Positions 8,188 through 22,274 of a stretch of DNA of 64,000 bases are shown in pieces. A program made the translations under genes and the position numbers. Under the pieces are notes generated by a model. The model ran no database searches. It saw only the letters and a program-made list of their open reading frames with translations, and was not told where the DNA came from. Source of the stretch: an uncultured delta proteobacterium (GTDB taxonomy: Bacteria > Desulfobacterota > Binatia > Bin18). Numbering within the stretch: position 1 is the first letter of the stretch; each line of letters opens with the position of its first letter. The stretch covers positions 1 through 64,000 of the forward strand of contig CAVTCR010000006.1 in assembly GCA_963733195.1 (NCBI GenBank). The letters are read 5' to 3'.

Positions 8188-8274
8188 GGAGAGGTGGCAG
8201 AGCCCGGTTGATCGCGCACGACTCGAAATCGTGTATGCCGTAAGGCATCGGGGGTTCAAATCCCCCCCTCTCCG
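8188..8274 (+). tRNA. tRNA-Ser (anticodon CGA)
   Basis: GGAGAGG/CCTCTCC acceptor stem, CACGA-CTCGAAA-TCGTG anticodon arm, long variable arm ATGCCGTAAGGCAT, GGTTCAAATCC T-loop. CCA not encoded. Confidence 0.95.
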
Positions 8275-8374
8275 CTGTGCGCTTGCCGCGAATCTTTAGG
8301 AACTTTACGGGACTTCCGTGAGTTAACAGAGAAAACGACCAACGCAACCTAGCAACGAGAGGCCTACCTACTGT

Positions 8375-9640
8375 ATGGATATTGGACTCGGAATCGCGGT
8401 ACTTGCAGGTTTTTTGTCATTTGTCTCACCCTGTGTGCTCCCGATCGTACCAGGGTATCTCACATTCATTACTGGGATGAGCTTCGATGAACTCACGAGC
8501 CACCAAAACCGGTCTCAGCTCATTCTCAATGCCATCACTAAAAGTCTGCCGTTCGTGCTTGGCTTCTCGCTAGTGTTTATTTCCCTTGGGGCCTCCGCTT
8601 CGGCTATTGGAGGGGTCTTACGCGAAAATCTTGGGTTGATGAAACAGGTTGCTGGTGTCGGGATTATCATTCTTGGGTTGCACCTTGCCGGGTTGTTACC
8701 GATCCCTGCGCTGTTACGAGACCGCCGATTGTCGGGTGAACCGACAAGTCCAGGCATGGGCCGGGCGTTTGTCGCCGGGATTTTCTTTGCTTTTGGGTGG
8801 ACACCTTGTGTTGGACCGATTCTCGCGGGAATCTTAACCTTAGCGGCAACAGCCGAGACTCTCACTCGAGGTGTTCTCCTTCTTGCCGCCTACTCACTGG
8901 GGCTAGGGATTCCTTTCATCCTCTCGGCAGCATTCTTGAACGCTTTCTTATCGTTTTTCAAAGGGATGAAAGGCTATTTGCGGCAACTTGAGGTCGCGAG
9001 TGGTGCACTACTTATACTCGTCGGTGGCATGATCTTTACTGACAGCATGGGCTGGCTTGCCTCGAAATTCACATTCCTGAATGCTGAAGAGTTGCTGACG
9101 CTGGAGAGCACCCCATCGACTGTAGAGCCTAAAGCGGCAGTGGCAGCAGAACCGCCGAAGACTGCCTATGGATCGTACGATTTTGCGTTGAAATCGATTG
9201 ACGGTGAACCGGTCAAACTGTCTGACTATCAAGGCAAAGTAGTACTGGTAAATTTCTGGGCAACATGGTGTGGACCGTGCGTGGTTGAGACACCATCGCT
9301 GGTGCGGGTGTACCATAAGTATCGTGACCGTGGATTCATGGTGATTGGTGTCGCGATGCAGAGCGAAGAGGACAACGTCAAGAACTTTGTTGACAAGTAT
9401 CGGGTTCCCTACGCGATTGCCCGCGATACAACGAACGAGGTTGGATTACGCTACCAGGTGTTTGCGCTCCCCAGTAGTTTTCTTTTTACGGGTGACGGGA
9501 AAGTAAAAAAGGCTTTCATGGGATTTGTTGATGAAGAGCGGCTTGAGCACGAGTTGGATGCGCTGTTTGCGGCGAGCCCTACGCCACAAGGCACTCCGCA
9601 ACCACAGTCGGAAGGCATTTCGTACCGAGAAGAAAAATAA
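8375..9640 (+). CDS. CcdA (cytochrome c biogenesis/DsbD-beta) fused to TlpA-type thioredoxin
   Basis: SFVSPCVLP and GWTPCVGPIL in transmembrane segments; C-terminal VNFWATWCGPC and FALPSSF. Confidence 0.9.
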   Translation: MDIGLGIAVLAGFLSFVSPCVLPIVPGYLTFITGMSFDELTSHQNRSQLILNAITKSLPFVLGFSLVFISLGASASAIGGVLRENLGLMKQVAGVGIIILGLHLAGLLPIPALLRDRRLSGEPTSPGMGRAFVAGIFFAFGWTPCVGPILAGILTLAATAETLTRGVLLLAAYSLGLGIPFILSAAFLNAFLSFFKGMKGYLRQLEVASGALLILVGGMIFTDSMGWLASKFTFLNAEELLTLESTPSTVEPKAAVAAEPPKTAYGSYDFALKSIDGEPVKLSDYQGKVVLVNFWATWCGPCVVETPSLVRVYHKYRDRGFMVIGVAMQSEEDNVKNFVDKYRVPYAIARDTTNEVGLRYQVFALPSSFLFTGDGKVKKAFMGFVDEERLEHELDALFAASPTPQGTPQPQSEGISYREEK

Positions 9641-9728
9641 GGCATTGAGTTTGTTGGATAAATGGCCAGCAACATGAACGACGGGGCACGGCACATCGTG
9701 CCCCGTCGTGTTTCAGGGAGGAAGACGG

Positions 9729-10151
9729 ATGTCAGCAGGAGGTTTTCGCCATACTGTCGCAAGCACAACCACTGACGGTCTTGCTATTGAACTCCAAGCA
9801 GGAGAACTACGTTGGACACTTGACGAACCGGTAGCAATGGGTGGCAAAGGTGCAGCCCCTGATCCGGTGACCTCTTTCCTCGGAGCATTATGTGGGTGCT
9901 TGTTAATCTCTTTGCAGATTACTGCTCGTGCACGGCAAGTCCCTCTTGCTGGAGCGACGATCTCGGCGAAAGCCAACGAGAAAGGATTCGTCAAAACTAT
10001 CGACGTGGACCTGACGGTGCGAAGCGATGCGCTTGAGGAAAAAATCCGCACTATCGTCGAACGAGCGGAAAAAGGATGTTATATCAAAGCGCTGTTGAAG
10101 GAGAGCGTTGAGTATCGTCTCAATCTAACCATCCTGCCAGCGCAGGAATAA
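9729..10151 (+). CDS. OsmC family protein
   Basis: DEPVAMGGKGAAPDP..FLGALCGC and AEKGCYI conserved Cys pair. Confidence 0.85.
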   Translation: MSAGGFRHTVASTTTDGLAIELQAGELRWTLDEPVAMGGKGAAPDPVTSFLGALCGCLLISLQITARARQVPLAGATISAKANEKGFVKTIDVDLTVRSDALEEKIRTIVERAEKGCYIKALLKESVEYRLNLTILPAQE

Positions 10152-10169
10152 CTAAAGGAGGAATGCACG

Positions 10170-10475
10170 ATGATTGTCATTGCCGGAACGATTCCGATCA
10201 AACCTGAAGCCTGGGAAGAGGCCAAGAAATTGGCCGGACGACTGGAAGAGGCAACGCGCAAAGAACCTGGATGTCTGATGTACACTTTCCACGTTGACCG
10301 AAACAAACCCTCGACGTTTTTTATTTTTGAAGAGTGGGAATCTGATGCGGCCTTAGCGAAACATTTTCAAACTGAGCACATGAAAGAGTTCATGCAACTC
10401 GCCCCGAAAGTATTAGCTGGTGCAGTGAGTGCAAAGAAATATGAGGTGACGTCGGCTGCGCCACTGTCGGTGTAG
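10170..10475 (+). CDS. Antibiotic biosynthesis monooxygenase (ABM) family protein
   Basis: TRKEPGCLMY, FEEWESDAALAKHFQTEH. Confidence 0.9.
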   Translation: MIVIAGTIPIKPEAWEEAKKLAGRLEEATRKEPGCLMYTFHVDRNKPSTFFIFEEWESDAALAKHFQTEHMKEFMQLAPKVLAGAVSAKKYEVTSAAPLSV

Positions 10476-10485
10476 TGAGACGCTT

Positions 10486-11094
10486 ATGAGCACGCAATCC
10501 CCTGGACACGAGCTGGATTCTATCGTGCTGCATTTTGGCTCGTGGCTGCAACAAATGGATAACCAAGCCTTCTTTGCCTTCTGCCAGCGGAACCGCGACT
10601 GGCGGATCGAGCGGACCAGCGAAGGAGACCTCATCATCATGCCACCGACTGGGGGAACGACTGGGCAAGTGAACTTCAATCTGACTGGACTCTTTTCCGC
10701 GTGGGTTAGAACCGATGGGACCGGGATTGGCTTTGACTCTTCAACAGGATTCACGCTGCCCAACGGGGCAGAGCGTTCTCCAGACCTCGCGTGGGTGCGA
10801 CGTTCGCGGTGGGAAGCCTTGACGGAAGACGAACGCACAGAGTTTCCTCCTCTGTGTCCAGATTTTGTTGTCGAAATTCGTTCGCCATCAGATCGGCTCT
10901 CGACACTGCAATCCAAGATGCGTGAATATATCGACAACGGAGCCCAGCTTGGTTGGTTGCTCGATCCGTTAGAGAAGAAAGTATACGGCTACAGACCCAA
11001 TGCACCAGTGGAAATTCTCGATCAGCCTGTGACGTTGAGTGGTGGTCCAGTGCTGCCTGGATTTGTGCTGCACTTGAATGAGGTATGGGGGTAA
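10486..11094 (+). CDS. Uma2 family endonuclease
   Basis: RSPDLAWV, CPDFVVEIRSPSD, KMREYIDNGAQLGWLLDP. Confidence 0.93.
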   Translation: MSTQSPGHELDSIVLHFGSWLQQMDNQAFFAFCQRNRDWRIERTSEGDLIIMPPTGGTTGQVNFNLTGLFSAWVRTDGTGIGFDSSTGFTLPNGAERSPDLAWVRRSRWEALTEDERTEFPPLCPDFVVEIRSPSDRLSTLQSKMREYIDNGAQLGWLLDPLEKKVYGYRPNAPVEILDQPVTLSGGPVLPGFVLHLNEVWG

Positions 11095-11149
11095 TACTGG
11101 TGACGAAATCCCCTCTGTCTCCCCTTTGTTAAAGGGGAGAACCCAAACT

Positions 11150-11589
11150 TTGGACGGTCCACCTTTCCGCCACAGCCGAATCCCGAGCGGAACCTTCCAC
11201 TTCCCATCTGTCCACAACAACAAGACGACTTGCATTCCCCACACCGGTTTGCCCACACTACTCGACCACACCCACCTCACGGCTTCGGCCACGCGGGTAA
11301 AGCGCTTCCAGCTGGTGTCAGCAATCACCAGCTAGCCACCCGTCGGCCCAAGACTTTGCACGAAGATTTCCCCTAGCCGTCGAGACCAGGGCATCTTACT
11401 ATAGAGGACGCGGCGCAAAGGATCGTGTGACCCCTTAGTGCAGAGCAGCGCTAAACTCACACCCCTCGTTCGTGTGTGGCGCTACAGTAAACCCATGAGG
11501 CGCATTGCCGTTGCAGGAGTTACGACAGTGCTGATGTTGGGCATACCCCCAACATTCTATTGCGCTTTTTGACTCCTGCGTAATCCCAG
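11150..11589 (-). mobile_element. Degraded, truncated IS701-like DDE transposase remnant
   Basis: Minus frame MPNISTVV...GG*LVIADTSWKRF...VWSSSVGKPVWGMQVVLLLWTDG...PLGIRLW...SK with internal stops; truncated near 11150. Confidence 0.6.
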
Positions 11590-12354
11590 CGGACTATAGA
11601 GGTTCCTGACGCTGGTTGCATCGAGGAAATTGCCATAAAACTCCTGGCAGATACGTGCACTCTGAGCAAATGTTAGCAGAAACCCCTGCTCTCCTGGCCG
11701 TTCCGCTTTCCATTGTGCGAAATGTTCTTCATGACAGAAGAACTGTACTCGCTTTCAATAGCGGTCGATAAAGTGGGGAACGGCACGATCTTCACTCGTC
11801 GCTACCGGGTCCCATTCGCACAGCGCCTCTGCCGTTGCACTTTGACTCACCGCCCCATCCGTCGTGACCGTCATAGCAAACTCAATCGTCTGCCGACAAA
11901 AGCCACACACCGAGGTGATCGTTGCTTCCGTCCCGATCCCATGCACGATGGGAATGGCAATCGCCCCGCCCGGTCACATCCCGTAGAGTGGAGGCTTTCC
12001 TGGAATGTGCACGCGATCAGGGCCGAGAAGTGCCGAGAACGGATACAAGACCACTACCTGCCGACTGTTCGCGTCATATTTGAGAAAGTCGATGCTGTTG
12101 AGCCGTTCAATACATGCTGTGACTTTCTCCATTGAGAAAGAGATGTCGCTGACTAGTTCGTCGATTGTTGGACCGCGTCCGCATCGGAAGAACATTGCAA
12201 GGATTTGGTGACAGAGGCATCGTTCTTCGTCGCTGAGGCGTTGGAGAACGCGTTGTCTGGCCTCTAGCAACGGCTGCACGTACGCGGCAAACCCAGGAGG
12301 ATAGTCTTCGGGGCGAAGTGGCATTTGTGGCATGACGAGAGTATACGGTTTCAT
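11557..12354 (-). CDS. MerB (alkylmercury lyase)-like protein with two in-frame UGA codons, probable di-selenoprotein
   Basis: One continuous frame of 265 codons: ...VLYPFS...PLYGM-U(11976-11974)-PGGAIAIP...TITSVCGFC...FIDRY-U(11757-11755)-KRVQFFCHEEHFAQW...ICQEFYG. Matches MerB LYAWC96ALD, SSHC117 and SFC159CHVHFF (alignment by eye). Confidence 0.8.
11724..11743 (-). promoter_or_regulatory. Putative SECIS hairpin after the second UGA of the merB-like gene
   Basis: mRNA GUUCUUC-UGUCAU-GAAGAAC: 7-bp stem starting 12 nt after UGA, GU in the loop, lower GCGA/UCGC pairing. Confidence 0.65.
11937..11953 (-). promoter_or_regulatory. Putative SECIS hairpin after the first UGA of the merB-like gene
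   Basis: mRNA UCCCAU-CGUGC-AUGGGA; loop 27-31 nt after UGA with G at position 2. Confidence 0.5.
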
Positions 12355-12452
12355 GACAGCGGAGCACAAGAGATGGGTGAGATGACAGAAACAACTGACT
12401 GTCCGAAAGAATGACAGAGGACAGGATGTCAGAGTCATAGTGGAGATTTGCC

Positions 12453-15400
12453 ATGACCTTTGATGAAGTGCTGGACCAGAGTCCGAGAGCTGCTGCAGCA
12501 ACGCGGGCCGGGTGACTTATCGGGCGCTTGAAACGCCGCTTCGACCTGGATGACGACTATCTGGAAGACCTCAAAGGCGAACTCATCCGCGCTGAGCGGC
12601 TGTAGCGGCGGATGAAGACGGCGAGGTGCTGGTCTGGACGGGCGGAGCAACGAAGGGCGAAACGGCGAAAGGGGGAAGCGGCGAAACGAGAAGTTGTCAG
12701 TGCTCAGTTCTCAGTAGTCAGTCCCCAGCCCCTAGCCCCTAGCCCCCAGCCCCGAGCAGGCGAGCGGCGCCAACTGACAGTGATGTTCATTGACTTGGTA
12801 GGATCGACGACCCTCTCCCAACAGCTCGACCCCGAAGACTATCATGCCCGCGTGGTGGCCTATCAGGCTGCCTGTCGGCAGATCATCGCGCGCTACGAAG
12901 GGCATATTGCTCAATATCTGGGCGATGGCGTGTTGGTGTACTTTGGCTATCCGGCTGCGCATGAAGAAGATGCGGTGCGCGCCGTGCGCAGCGGATTGGA
13001 GATCGTTACGGCAGTAAGCCAGTTGGCGTATACGCCACCGTTACAGGTGCGCATTGGCATTCACACTGGGCCGGTGGTGGTGGGCGAGATTGGTGCGGGG
13101 GAGCGCACTGAACGGCTGGCTTTAGGGGAGACGCCGAATATTGCCGCGCGCGTGCAAGGCCACGCTGCACCGAATGAGGTTCTGATCAGCACCACGACCT
13201 TTCGCCTGATTCACGGGCTGTTTGAAACCGAAGAGCGGGGGCCGCAGGAACTCAAGGGCATCTCGACTCCCATGACGCTCTACCGAGTCGTGGGAGAAAG
13301 CGCAGCACAGAGTCGCTTTGAGGCGGCGGTGCAAACGGGCTTGACGCCGCTGGTGGGCCGCGCCGAAGAACTTGTCTTGTTGCAGCGGCGCTGGGACCAG
13401 GCCAAAGCGGCGAGGGGCAAGTGGTGCTGCTCAGCGGTGAGCCAGGGATTGGCAAGTCCCGGCTAGTGCAGGAGCTGAAAGAGCACGTTATTCCCGAAGG
13501 AGCCACACGCATAGAGTTTCGCTGCTCGCCCTATCACCAGAACAGTGCGCTGTATCCGATCATCGACCACCTGCAGCGCCTGCTGCAGTTTGCGCGCGAG
13601 GATACACCTGCCGTCAAGCTGGAGAAACTCCAACACACGCTGCAGTCACTATCGCTTCCCGCAAGCAGATACGCTCCCGCTGCTGGCCGCATTGTTGTCC
13701 TTGCCCCATCCCGAAGGCTACCCGCCATTACAGTCAGTCCGCAGAAGCAGAAGGAGAAGACGCAGGCGGCCTTAGTAGCATGGCTGGTCGAGGAAGCGGA
13801 GCAGAACCCGGTCTACAACACCTGGGAAGATCTGCACTGGGCTGATCCCTCCACGTTGGAGGTGCTCACGCTCCTCCTTGACCAAGTGCCCACGACACGG
13901 CTGTTGGCGCTGCTGACCTTTCGCCCCGAGTTCACCCCACCCTGGGGTAATCGCTCGCACCTCAGCCAGCTGACGCTGAGCCGCTTAGGCCGACGCAGGT
14001 CGAGACATGGTCGAGCAAGTGACGGGCGGCAAGGCCTGCCGCGGAAGTCGTGCAACAGATCGTGGCCAAGACCGACGGCGTGCCGTTGTTTGTCGAAGAA
14101 TTGACCAAGACCGTGGTCGTTGAGTCAGAATCCATGTAGGGGCGTATCTGGCAGATACGCCCCTACTGGGCATTCCTTCTACGTTACAGGATGCGCTGAT
14201 GGCGCGCTTGGATCGCTTGGCGCCAGTCAAAGAGATTGCGCAGCTGGGAGCGACCATGGGGCGGGAGTTTCGTATGAGTTGCTCCACGCGGTCTCTCCCT
14301 TAGACGAGGGCAGCTTACAGCAGGGACTGCGGCAGTTAGTCGAGGTCGAGCTGCTCTATCAGCGTGGGTTGCCGCCGCAGGCGACGTATCTCTTCAAGCA
14401 CGCGCTGATTCAGGACACCGCCTATCAATCATTACTCAAGAGCAAACGCCAGCAATATCACCAGCAGATAGCCCAGGTGTTGGAGGAGCAGTTTCCAGAC
14501 ACAACAGAGACGCAGCCCGAGCTGGTGGCGCATCACTACACCGAGGCGGGTCTCATAGCGCAAGCGATTCCCTACTGGCAGCGGGCAGGACAAGGAGCTA
14601 TCCAGCGCTCCGCTAATGTAGAAGCCGTGAACCACCTCACACGAGGGCTGGAGTTGCTCGAGACCCTTCCTGATGTGCCGCAGCGCACCCAGCTGGAGTT
14701 CGGCTTACAGACCGCCCTCGGCCCGGCTCTGATGGCCACCAAGGGCTTTGCAGCCCCAGAAGTCGTAAACGTGTACACCCGGGCACGTGACACTGTGTCA
14801 GCAGGTGGGGGAATCGCCTCAGCTCTTCTCCGCGCTGCTTGGACTGGTGAACTATTACAACGTGCGGGGAGAGTTCCAGACGGGACATGAACTGGGGGAA
14901 CAGCTCCTCGGTATGGCGCAGCGACTCCAAGACTCCGCCCTGCTGTTGGAAGCTCATCACGTAGTAGGGGGCGGCGCGGTGTACTATTTCGGAGACTTAG
15001 TCACTGCCCGGGCGCATTTGCAGCAAGCACTTGCCCTCTACAACCCCCACCAGCACCGGTCCCATGCCTTTCTCTATGGGCATGATCCCCGGGTGTGTTG
15101 CCTCTGCTTTGAGGCCCATGCGCTGTGGCGTCTAGGGTACCCAGACCAAGCACTGAAGAGCATGCAAGACGCACTCACGTTCGCCCAAGAGCTAGGGCAT
15201 CCGTTTAGCCTGGGTCAGGCCCTGACCTATGCGGCCGGGCTCCACCAACATCGGCGGGAGGTGCAAGCGACTCACAGATGGGCAGCAGAGCTGATTGAGC
15301 TCTCGCGGGAACAAGGATTTCTCATCTGGTTCCCATTGGGAACAGCCGCGCAGGGATGGGTACTTGCGGAGCAAGGAGACGTCGAGGAGGGAATTGCAAA

Positions 15401-15878
15401 GCTCCGTCAGGGCATTGATGCGTACAAAGCCACGCAGGCAGAGCTGGGGCAGCCCGACCGCCTGCGCCAGCTGGCGGCGGCGTATGGGAAAGCGGGGCAG
15501 ACCAAAGAAGGGCTCAGAGTGCTAACCGAAGCGTGGGAGGTCGTTTCCAGAACCGGAGAGCGTCTTGGAGAGGCGGAGCTGTATCGGCTGAAAGGCGAGC
15601 TGACGCTCGCAACAGTTCAAGCGTTCAGACGGTCTCAAGCAGTCTCAGAAGTCGAAGACGAGGCTGAAGAGTGTTTTCTGAAGGCCATCGAGATTGCCCG
15701 TCGCCACAGGCGAAGTCGCTGGAGCTTCGGGCAACGGTGAGCCTCGCTCGCCTGTGGCAGCAGCAAGGCAAAAGCGCCGAAGCTCACGCAGATGTTAGCC
15801 GAGATCTACGGTTGGTTCACCGAAGGATTTGACACGAAAGACTTGCAAGAGGCGAAAGCACTACTGGAAGAATTGTAA
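12453..15878 (+). CDS. Class III nucleotide cyclase + AAA/STAND ATPase + TPR protein, copy 1 (multiple frameshifts as assembled)
   Basis: MTFDEVL start; [31 protein letters not shown]; Walker A GEPGIGKS; [11 protein letters not shown]; TPR-like tail ending [21 protein letters not shown]. Confidence 0.85.
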
Positions 15879-21065: not shown

Positions 21066-22274
21066 TTATGAGGCGGCTGCTTTGGTCGTTGCTTGTTGCT
21101 CTTGGATAGCAGCTTGATTTTCTAAGAGCGTACTGATTTGCGCAGAGGTGAAGCCACACTCGCGGAGAATGTCTATCGTGTGTTCGCCGAGAGCAGGAGC
21201 GGGGTGACGAATCTCGGGCTGGGTTTCGCTGAACTTCCCCGGCACATTGACGCCACGCACTCGCCCGGCAACGGGATGATCGTACTCAACAAACGTCTGA
21301 TTATGGATCAACTGCGGGTCTTGTAGCGCCTCGTCAAAGGTATACACCGGACCACAAGGGACATCCGCCTGTTCCAGAATTCGCAACCACTCGTTTGTGG
21401 TTTTCTGTGGTAACAGTGCGGCAAAGCCATCCATAATGCTCTGCAGGTTACGAATACGGTCCGCCGGCTGCGGATACTGGGTAATCCATTCTGGTTTCCC
21501 CAGCGCACGACTCATGCGTTTCCATTGGTCGTTGGTTGCTGCACTGACAACCATATATCCGTCCTGTGTGGCCATTGGTTGCAACATGGGCCGTGAGGTC
21601 AACTGACGAAACTCGTCGTCAGGGAGAAAGGTGTAGCCGAACATCGAGTCGGGGGCAACGAAGGAAAGCAGCGAATCAATCATCGGCAGCTGAATTTCTT
21701 GTCCAACACCTTGGCGTCCCGCGGCAACGAGCGCTGCCAGAACGTGATAAATAGCAGCCATTGATGTCATCTTATCGGCAAAGGCCATACGCACGAATGC
21801 TGGTTTCCCTTGCCCACCTTGTAAAAAGGCAAGCCCAGACATGCCTTGAATCACCGGATCATAGCACGGTTTGTGAGAATAGGGACCATCGGCGCCGAAT
21901 CCAGAGATCGAAAGATAGATGATCTTTGGGTTCCGTACGCGTATTGTTGGATAATCGAGTCCGAGACGTTCCATAACTCTGGGCCGGAAATTCTGCACCA
22001 GCACGTCACTCTGTTCAGCTATCCGTAAAATCGTTTCTTGGGCTGAAGGATGTTTGAGGTCAAGAACAATACTGCGTTTATTGCGATTGAAATTGACAAA
22101 CCAAGAGCCAACGCCAGCTTTGAATGTCATGTTGTGATGACGCATGATGTCACCATCGGGAGACTCCACCTTAATGACGTCCGCACCGAGGTCACCCATC
22201 ATCATCGTGCAAAACGGGCCAGTCACCGCGCTACTAAAGTCGAGCACTCGCACGCCCGCTAAAGGTCCACCCAT
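21066..22274 (-). CDS. CaiB/BaiF family CoA-transferase
   Basis: PLAGVRVLDFS, NRNKRSIVLDLK, QNFRP, YDPVIQGMSG. Confidence 0.92.
   Translation of the reverse strand: MGGPLAGVRVLDFSSAVTGPFCTMMMGDLGADVIKVESPDGDIMRHHNMTFKAGVGSWFVNFNRNKRSIVLDLKHPSAQETILRIAEQSDVLVQNFRPRVMERLGLDYPTIRVRNPKIIYLSISGFGADGPYSHKPCYDPVIQGMSGLAFLQGGQGKPAFVRMAFADKMTSMAAIYHVLAALVAAGRQGVGQEIQLPMIDSLLSFVAPDSMFGYTFLPDDEFRQLTSRPMLQPMATQDGYMVVSAATNDQWKRMSRALGKPEWITQYPQPADRIRNLQSIMDGFAALLPQKTTNEWLRILEQADVPCGPVYTFDEALQDPQLIHNQTFVEYDHPVAGRVRGVNVPGKFSETQPEIRHPAPALGEHTIDILRECGFTSAQISTLLENQAAIQEQQATTKAAAS

Follow-up and report, generated by a model that had tools for sequence, protein, structure and literature searches.

Two in-frame UGA codons at the metal-ligand positions of a MerB-fold gene from Binatia: a very probable, apparently undescribed double-selenocysteine protein

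When a gene related to the Hg-C-cleaving enzyme MerB is interrupted by TGA at the codons for both of its metal ligands, is it a broken gene or a selenoprotein, and what might a protein with two selenocysteines and no catalytic aspartate do? The question is raised by a 64,000-nucleotide (nt) stretch of DNA from an uncultured delta proteobacterium of the Binatia (GenBank assembly GCA_963733195.1, contig CAVTCR010000006.1, positions 1 to 64,000 of the forward strand; hereafter the window). On its minus strand, 12354..11557 forms a single frame of 265 codons followed by TAG, whose sole interruptions are TGA at codons 127 and 200. A first-pass annotation, made from the letters of the window alone, had proposed this frame from ATG 12354 to the TAG at 11557, and recomputing it gave the same result; the two short open reading frames (ORFs) that it had noticed are the pieces 11974..12501 (175 amino acids) and 11755..11946 (63 amino acids) into which translation table 11 splits the gene. 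Translated with UGA as selenocysteine (Sec, U), the two sites read LYGM-U-PGG and DRY-U-KRVQFFC, as first described, and lie 73 residues apart. Our analysis makes it very probable that this is a genuine two-Sec selenoprotein of the MerB fold. Its best explanation as a whole, to which we give a probability of roughly 0.55, is a protein whose paired selenocysteines handle a soft metal or organometal. Decoding of both UGAs as Sec is the most economical reading of the sequence, because conserved hairpins follow them, the genome holds tRNA-Sec(UCA), SelB and a Sec-containing SelD, and the segments past the UGAs bear the mark of purifying selection. The features on which the argument draws are as follows.

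11557..12354, minus strand: coding sequence of the probable two-Sec MerB-fold selenoprotein, ATG at 12354 and TAG at 11559-11557, delimited by the frame, the Pfam MerB match, the model with its fold match, and the start alignment
11974..11976, minus strand: UGA-1, codon 127, predicted Sec, equivalent to MerB Cys96; Cys/Sec column invariant in 28/28 sequences
11965..11967, minus strand: codon 130, Gly at the position of the MerB catalytic Asp99; Asp in 122/128 aligned proteins, the window protein being the sole Gly
11937..11953, minus strand: SECIS-like (selenocysteine insertion sequence) hairpin 1, 6-bp stem, loop CGUGC, loop start 29 nt after the U of UGA
11896..11907, minus strand: C150-G-F-C153, C150 being equivalent to MerB Cys117; a family-typical CxxC
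11755..11757, minus strand: UGA-2, codon 200, predicted Sec, equivalent to MerB Cys159 in alignments to MerB2, E. coli MerB and the 28-sequence set
11724..11743, minus strand: SECIS-like hairpin 2, 7-bp stem GUUCUUC/GAAGAAC, loop start 21 nt after the U of UGA
11722..11736, minus strand: C207 to H211 (FFC-HEEH), which with C150 and C153 makes up a co-varying Cys3His pattern

Translation may begin at Met8 (12333) or Met11 (12324) instead of ATG 12354; Met11 aligns with the starts of the sister-genus proteins.

The same two TGAs recur beyond this genome. The close relatives of the gene lie in metagenome-assembled genomes (MAGs) labelled Candidatus Binatia: six of 28 sampled genomes from a sister genus carry a gene 48-58% identical to it with TGA at the same two codons, and the gene is found in neither of the two other genomes of the window's own genus (0/2). 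These six and the window gene are referred to here as subfamily A (n=7), in which both TGAs are conserved in 7/7 genes across two genera. The first-pass annotation had argued that errors would hardly strike both codons by chance, and the identical TGAs in 6/6 sister-genus homologues bear this out. Among 400 genomes sampled from the phylum, 21 beyond the window's own hold a homologue, of which 18 are U/U at the two sites, one is Cys/U and two are Cys/Cys. Sixteen of the 400 carry a second two-Sec subfamily, B, in which the catalytic Asp is kept, and a further U/U homologue, L038, stands separate from these 16 genes. The resulting 28-sequence alignment comprises 24 U/U, one C/U and three C/C sequences, with columns 127, 150 and 200 as its only invariant positions, so that the interchange of Cys and Sec at both sites that was expected of a true selenoprotein family is indeed found among homologues. 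The window gene is no singleton: the conserved subfamily to which it belongs stands next to another two-Sec subfamily that is much larger. Two loci titled 'uncultured Enterobacteriaceae bacterium' (L051 and L056) carry a Binatia-type gene at 48-53% identity, in synteny with Binatia MAGs, and this label looks wrong.

Conservation, by which the first-pass annotation proposed that its reading should stand or fall, both persists and rises after the two UGAs. Amino-acid identity to the window protein is 0.38-0.47 before UGA-1, 0.51-0.60 between the UGAs and 0.60-0.72 after UGA-2, and the nonsynonymous divergence (dN) falls from about 0.55 to 0.35 to 0.25 across these three segments, the synonymous divergence (dS) being saturated. 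Since identity rises and dN falls after each UGA, the segments past them are under the stronger purifying selection; a truncated gene would give the opposite trend. Elsewhere in the window TGA is a normal stop, ending 10/33 ORFs of at least 250 amino acids.

The first-pass annotation had also placed a hairpin after each TGA, at 11937-11953 and 11724-11743, and both lie at these coordinates. Hairpin 1 (UCCCAU-CGUGC-AUGGGA, 11953-11937) has a folding energy of -6.9 kcal/mol (z -2.1) and hairpin 2 (GUUCUUC-UGUCAU-GAAGAAC, 11743-11724) one of -9.1 kcal/mol (z -3.4); the distance rule of bSECISearch places the loop 16-37 nt from the UGA. The 60 nt after TGA-2 are more stable than shuffled sequence (z -1.96; 6/200 shuffles reach it). 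Both hairpins are kept in 7/7 subfamily A members, and homologous hairpins are found at the same offsets in subfamily B. When the window gene is compared with the other six, synonymous-codon identity has a gene mean of 0.42, and its two highest windows lie directly after the two UGAs (0.96 over codons 131-140; 0.82-0.90 after UGA-2, with 0.82 over codons 201-210). Across 23 sequences, 93.5% of helix 1 cells are paired, against 85.9 +/- 1.7% in shuffles, a value that 0/500 shuffles reach. Its pair 28-36 is U-A in 15, A-U in seven, U-G in one and unpaired in none (n=23); this U-A/A-U switch follows the split between subfamilies A and B, so that a single change may account for it. The closing pair of helix 2 (22-27) occurs as C-G in nine sequences and as U-A in eight; within subfamily B it switches more than once, between Arg/UCG and Trp/UCA, with pairing retained. 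Energy gives little support to the hairpin after TGA-1, the case for which is made by conservation and covariation. Hairpin 2 is similar in geometry to the hairpin that follows the UGA of the selD gene of the same genome. The stem of hairpin 2 is made of the Phe-Phe (UUCUUC) and Glu-Glu (GAAGAA) codons of a conserved FF-x-x-EEH motif, so that protein motif and RNA helix constrain each other.

The genome also encodes the apparatus that would read these signals. It has a tRNA-Sec of 70.7 bits with anticodon UCA (G000:C11:21479-21570 (+)) and a SelB of 397.8 bits, with selB followed directly by selD (G000:C81:169199-172274). SelD is itself a selenoprotein, with an in-frame TGA at 171270 in the motif KAAG-U-AGKLGP and a strong 8-bp hairpin whose loop lies about 20 nt downstream. 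SelA scores 360.9 bits, and selA, on the minus strand, adjoins selC (G000:C11:21479-22992). The presence of selA, selB, selC and selD, which the first-pass annotation had made a test of its reading, is therefore established for selB, selC and selD, whereas selA is split by a one-base frameshift in this assembly, to which we return below. SelB passes the cut-off in 51/55 genomes of the taxonomic family, including all seven carriers of the gene, a spread that fits Sec decoding but does not discriminate. In the window itself, a tRNA-Ser(CGA) at 8188-8275 scores 36 bits on the tRNA-Sec model, under the cut-off of 47, as expected for a tRNA with a long variable arm.

Sequencing runs other than the source sample, labelled 'soil metagenome', add weak support only, since parts of the gene are uncovered (12310-12354, for example, in three of four). 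Run X2 yields a 216-nt contig across TGA-1 with 0 differences, and runs X1 and X3 and the RNA run X20 yield contigs across TGA-2 with 2-5 differences; among those listed, no difference falls on either TGA codon. Both TGAs are covered by contigs of X20, an RNA run in which DNA carry-over is possible.

What kind of protein results when the frame is read through? Sequence and model both indicate that the gene encodes a MerB-fold protein, as the first-pass annotation had concluded. Residues 114-240 match Pfam MerB (PF03243) at 46.3 bits (cut-off 27), the only such match in this genome (93% complete). The family alignment was used to build an AlphaFold2 model, which has a mean predicted local distance difference test (pLDDT) of 88.9 and a predicted template modelling score (pTM) of 0.85, and when it is searched against the PDB with Foldseek, 11/11 matches with E <= 0.001 are MerB or MerB2, the best being 5c17 (E 5.4e-13, template modelling (TM) score 0.80). 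The NCBIfam MerB equivalog models fall below cut-off (NF009710 and NF033555, with scores of 33.9 vs 193 and 29.9 vs 200), and no model of NCBIfam 20.0 reaches its cut-off on either double-Sec subfamily.

Alignments to two solved enzymes agree that the UGAs stand where MerB has Cys96 and Cys159, again as first proposed (numbering of Cys96, Asp99, Cys117 and Cys159 follows the relevant passages of PMC10114901 and of the preprint 10.1101/2022.07.06.499078). A phmmer search against PDB sequences finds MerB2 (5c17) at E 8.5e-7, with U127 and U200 on its two ligand cysteines, those of LFAWCAIS and GGTCKQIHYF. A profile of 28 family members finds E. coli MerB at E about 1e-17, and in it U127 falls on the Cys of LYAWCALD and G130 on the Asp of the same motif; C150 meets the SHCAAT Cys, and U200 the first of the paired cysteines, SFC(S)HVHFF in the C160S mutant chain. 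Among 128 aligned family members, the query counted, position 127 is Cys in 122, position 130 is Asp in 122 and position 200 is Cys in 120. The claim that the Asp99 position is Gly holds; the window protein alone has Gly there among these 128, and Gly130 is shared by 7/7 subfamily A members. The CGFC motif, which the first-pass annotation had read as an expansion special to this protein, is nothing of the kind, CxxC being the common family state (C150 in 109/128, C153 in 106/128). Of the 128 MerB-like proteins, 78 have C150, C153, C207 and H211 together (CCCH) and 19 have none of the four (Fisher p about 8e-12, with no correction for phylogeny), a pattern that probably marks a structural Cys3His metal site without counterpart in E. 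coli MerB.

These comparisons also place the protein among known systems. The E. coli R831b MerB (PDB 3F0O/3F0P/1S6L) has the same fold over its full length (Foldseek E about 1e-10), and its two metal-ligand positions and its Cys117 position are kept in the window protein; the latter differs in its predicted Sec ligands, in Gly for Asp99, in the lack of a mer operon and MerA, and in an identity of about 17-19%. The best match in both sequence and structure is MerB2 of Bacillus megaterium (5C17), a natural Asp99-to-Ser variant that is likewise without the catalytic Asp. Unlike the window gene, MerB2 has Cys ligands, Ser instead of Gly, and a place within a mer locus; according to PMC10114901, in its passages on this variant, it has much reduced activity and none on methylmercury (MeHg).

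Closer in kind is SaoL (NF040728), another selenoprotein of the MerB family that is encoded outside mer operons; it too has Sec where MerB has Cys159, and its database entries are truncated. As described in passages of 10.1101/2022.07.06.499078, the single Sec of SaoL stands in a Cys-Sec dipeptide, its Cys99 and Asp102 are retained, and its gene belongs to a nine-gene SAO locus in anaerobes, whereas the window protein has two Sec, Tyr before the second, no Asp and no SAO neighbours. We rejected identity with SaoL: the window protein scores 23.4 against a cut-off of 140 on the SaoL model, and it has U at the first site, Y-U at the second and G in place of the Asp. Other members of subfamilies A and B score 35-55. 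A third kind of Sec-containing MerB relative was seen in genome G036 (L028:1501-2100 (+)), with canonical Cys and Asp at site 1 (LYAWCAVD) and a single Sec at the Cys159 position; it scores 94.1 vs 193 on the MerB equivalog model, and its Sec follows Thr, unlike the CU of SaoL.

The passages available from reviews of 2022 and 2026 list SaoL, with its one Sec, as the sole MerB-like selenoprotein (PMC9312934, PMC13188914). No two-Sec MerB-like protein was found in full-text literature searches, in review passages or in NCBIfam 20.0, a scope outside which lie subscription-only papers and supplementary tables; such a protein thus appears to be undescribed. Among the two-Sec prokaryotic selenoproteins listed in the 2026 review is the UxxU metal-binding protein NF041115, where likewise two Sec are presumed to act on one metal or as a redox pair (PMC13188914). 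In UxxU proteins, however, the Sec are two residues apart in one motif, whereas those of the window protein are 73 apart, would come together through folding, and each have a SECIS of their own.

The nearest parallel is subfamily B, from Thermodesulfobacteriota-type lineages, which shares with the window gene Sec at both ligand positions, homologous SECIS offsets and the FF..EEH motif, and differs in keeping the Asp (16/16), in its N-terminus and in being only 19-23% identical to the window protein. An acidic residue stands three before the second Sec in 7/7 members of subfamily A and 15/16 of subfamily B, against 30/127 Cys-type homologues. Each subfamily is a fully supported clade on a long stem, and a free quick tree did not join them. 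We considered independent origins of the two and dropped the idea, as an approximately unbiased (AU) test did not reject an A+B clade (p-AU 0.83) and the constrained tree was better by 19.85 units of log-likelihood (lnL); long-branch attraction could favour such a clade. A single origin of the double-Sec state, followed by loss of Asp130 in the Binatia lineage, would fit three features that the two have in common: the FF..EEH motif, the acidic residue three before the second Sec and homologous SECIS hairpins.

Standard annotation misreads this gene, which the first-pass annotation expected to be called a pseudogene: gene callers truncate it at the TGAs. Among 1.84 billion representative proteins the window protein has 185 matches at E <= 0.001, and all those above 40% identity are fragments bounded by TGA: one of 126 amino acids (residues 1-126), one of 116 ending at the Met before U127, one of 63 (138-198) and one of 51 (204-243), for example. 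The 127 full-length matches are of Cys type at 21-36% identity, and no full-length Cys form of subfamily A was found among these representatives. Subfamily B is abundant in public data, where a query from it draws 291 database clusters at E <= 1e-5. Its entries are mostly 125-residue fragments called 'hypothetical protein' from Desulfobacca, Syntrophus, Smithellaceae and Thermodesulfobacteriota MAGs; the longer ones inspected have Trp at one or both TGA sites, and five have Cys at site 1 and end at site 2. Trp arises here because gene callers read TGA as Trp on short contigs, which masks selenoproteins as intact proteins. Within P0152-P0176, the entries that run past a TGA site (P0152-P0165 and P0170-P0173) carry Trp there; the exceptions are P0163 and P0174, which are short fragments, and P0167, with Gly and Leu.

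The surroundings of the gene say little about its function. It is alone on its strand, and all flanking genes are on the opposite one: on one flank a Uma2 gene (10486-11094), ABM, OsmC and a DsbD-TM/AhpC-TSA fusion, on the other a split cyclase/AAA/TPR gene. The first of these flanks is a same-strand run at 8375-11094, which comprises a DsbD-type membrane domain-AhpC/TSA-thioredoxin fusion, OsmC, an ABM monooxygenase and a Uma2 endonuclease-like gene; this thiol-redox cluster is oriented away from the MerB-like gene, and none of its ORFs scanned contains an in-frame TGA. At 12612-15740, adenylate/guanylate cyclase, AAA_16 and TPR domains are spread over the ORFs 12612-13466, 13421-14104, 14120-14890 and 14787-15740, probably one large signalling gene broken by frameshifts. 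The flanking ORFs have no counterpart in the six sister-genus loci, which share only among themselves an alpha/beta-hydrolase, an EthD protein, a methyltransferase, a glutathione S-transferase (GST), a rhomboid protein and HtrA. In subfamily B a MarR regulator lies upstream in 5/16 loci and no other neighbour recurs. A scan of 11300-12700 for promoters and terminators returned none of either, and 0/10 flanking ORFs scanned match a transporter family such as an SAO locus would hold, as judged by a Pfam scan and not with the Sao NCBIfam models. The gene does lie outside any mer operon, as first stated: its neighbours are unrelated to mer, and no MerA reaches the curated cut-off. One match to the MerA model, on contig C16, was rejected as MerA, as it scores 407.5 vs 454.45 and is without the C-terminal Cys pair and the HMA domain.

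In MerB, according to the passages of PMC10114901 on catalysis, Cys96 and Cys159 are the ligands of R-Hg+, and Hg-C cleavage uses a proton relayed by Asp99; replacing any of the three abolishes activity, and a D99S variant binds Cu(II). In the reading that we favour, Sec127 and Sec200 would replace these Hg-ligand cysteines and, by homology to solved MerB structures, would meet at one site as a bis-selenolate centre. Se-M-Se coordination would hold a thiophilic cation there, either a metal or an organometal: Hg(II), R-Hg+ or another soft species of this sort. The protein would act independently of mer, there being no MerA to receive a product. Very tight capture or hand-over, or else slow or single-turnover metal-carbon cleavage, would be favoured over canonical turnover, and any cleavage would need another proton donor; candidate donors in the sequence are Asp197, which precedes Sec200 by three residues, and three residues specific to the subfamily, Glu180, Asp182 and His194. 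This metal- or organometal-handling mechanism, drawn from sequence and from analogy to MerB, we hold to be evenly poised between right and wrong.

Several observations weigh against this account as a whole. Incorporation of Se, expression and metal binding are predictions from sequence. The selA gene is split into two frames near 22192-22211 by an apparent extra base; a real frameshift would mean a cell unable to make Sec. An indel in the assembly or a very recent inactivation would explain the split, and we suspect the former because other genes in the assembly are split as well, namely an oxidoreductase gene on contig C62 (G000:C62:352659-354042) and, in the window, the cyclase/AAA/TPR gene (12612-15740). 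The 60 nt after TGA-1 are no more stable than shuffled sequence (z +1.0; 171/200 shuffles are as stable or more), and an Rfam scan of 10500-13500 at E <= 10 returned no SECIS family, only a chance snoRNA match (E 4.4). The claim of a SECIS-like hairpin after each TGA accordingly stands on conservation, synonymous constraint and covariation, but not, at TGA-1, on stability. The other sequencing runs hold only 5-13% (at most 0.13) of sampled words, and cover the TGAs in short contigs alone. No gene for handling metals lies nearby and the two genera differ in the genes around the MerB-like gene; neither MerA nor HgcA was found at curated cut-offs in this 93% complete genome. The nearby thiol-redox genes would fit a redox function equally well, and canonical lyase turnover is unlikely because Asp99 has been lost.

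The alternative that survives best takes the last point the other way. A fully catalytic organometal lyase, acting on organomercurials for example, is unlikely but a serious contender; the metal-carbon bond would be activated by the pair of selenolates, and the proton would come from water or from an acid placed elsewhere than Asp99 (Asp197, or Glu180/Asp182/His194). Such a lyase is favoured by the MerB fold with both ligand positions kept as Sec, by the acidic residue that precedes the second Sec by three positions in both double-Sec subfamilies and is infrequent in Cys-type homologues, and by the sister subfamily B, which with its Asp looks lyase-competent from sequence. Model compounds lend it chemical plausibility, as selenium donors speed Hg-C cleavage in them, selones being faster than thiones (PMC11639659, in its passages on these compounds). 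Against this, replacement of Asp99 abolishes or cripples MerB, and the Ser variant MerB2 fails on MeHg, in the accounts given in PMC10114901; there is no MerA to remove a product, which as an Se-Hg-Se species would be very hard to release, and Asp197 is a candidate acid by its place in the sequence.

Loss of the metal-site Asp also suits a redox protein. It is distinctly improbable, though conceivable, that the two Sec form a reversible selenenylselenide (diselenide), the MerB fold being re-used as an oxidoreductase or as a sensor of peroxides or electrophiles. Beyond the adjacent Uma2 gene (10486-11094), the DsbD-TM/AhpC-TSA fusion, OsmC and ABM would suit such a role, and two-Sec UxxU redox motifs are among the prokaryotic selenoproteins described in the passages of PMC13188914. 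These neighbours are, however, on the other strand, with Uma2 between, and have no counterpart in the six loci of the sister genus; a reductase partner was not identified, and the only characterised chemistry of the family is metal binding, as far as PMC10114901 describes it in the passages drawn on here.

SelL is an example of a diselenide family. A selenium-based metal-sensing regulator, binding DNA through a winged-helix-like N-terminal part, is highly improbable: some 60 N-terminal residues of the model do resemble a winged helix-turn-helix (wHTH; MntR 1on2_A, probability 1.00, 63 columns), LexA, PerR and MarR give local matches at E 0.005-0.16, and the gene stands alone, but these wHTH matches cover few residues and are weak, the same N-terminal part occurs in the solved MerB enzymes, whose match extends from end to end, and a separate MarR lies upstream in five of the 16 loci of subfamily B. 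That the TGAs are real stops of a pseudogene, or errors of assembly, might be suggested by the table 11 split and by the several split genes of the assembly, selA among them, and is close to refuted, since the same TGAs occur in all seven genes of two genera, in the 16 subfamily B genes and in L038, conservation rises past them, the hairpins show synonymous constraint and compensatory pairs, and independent contigs of other runs cover both TGAs. Decoding of the UGAs as Cys, Trp or Gly, through recoding or a variant code, for which one may invoke the Trp of some public gene calls at homologous TGAs and the UGA-to-Cys recoding by selC-like tRNAs that has been described, is scarcely credible where TGA ends 10 of 33 long window ORFs, tRNA-Sec(UCA), SelB and Sec-type SelD are present, both sites align with Cys and never Trp in true Cys-type homologues, and SECIS-like hairpins follow both.

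The finding bears on how the family is understood. MerB is the sole known Hg-C-cleaving enzyme family, and its Cys-Asp-Cys triad is treated as strictly conserved, in the passages of PMC8261052 that deal with it. Subfamilies A and B would add a second and a third lineage of MerB-like selenoproteins, in which both metal ligands are Sec, each with its own SECIS, and one of which is without the catalytic Asp. Since database entries are only fragments or carry Trp at the TGAs, selenoproteome and mercury-cycling surveys miss these genes, and a curated family model with corrected annotation would be one practical outcome. A bis-selenolate site built from Sec 73 residues apart would, if formed, be an unusual metal centre. 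That the two subfamilies represent a mer-independent class of organometal-cleaving or -trapping enzymes on such a centre, with the Asp-less Binatia form working without the canonical proton relay, is a bolder and rather unlikely proposal; if it were true, the Asp-containing subfamily B, common in anaerobic lineages of Thermodesulfobacteriota type, would be a candidate for the methylmercury demethylation that mer does not explain. A bis-selenolate site of this kind would also offer a natural experiment on why cells pay for selenocysteine at metal sites.

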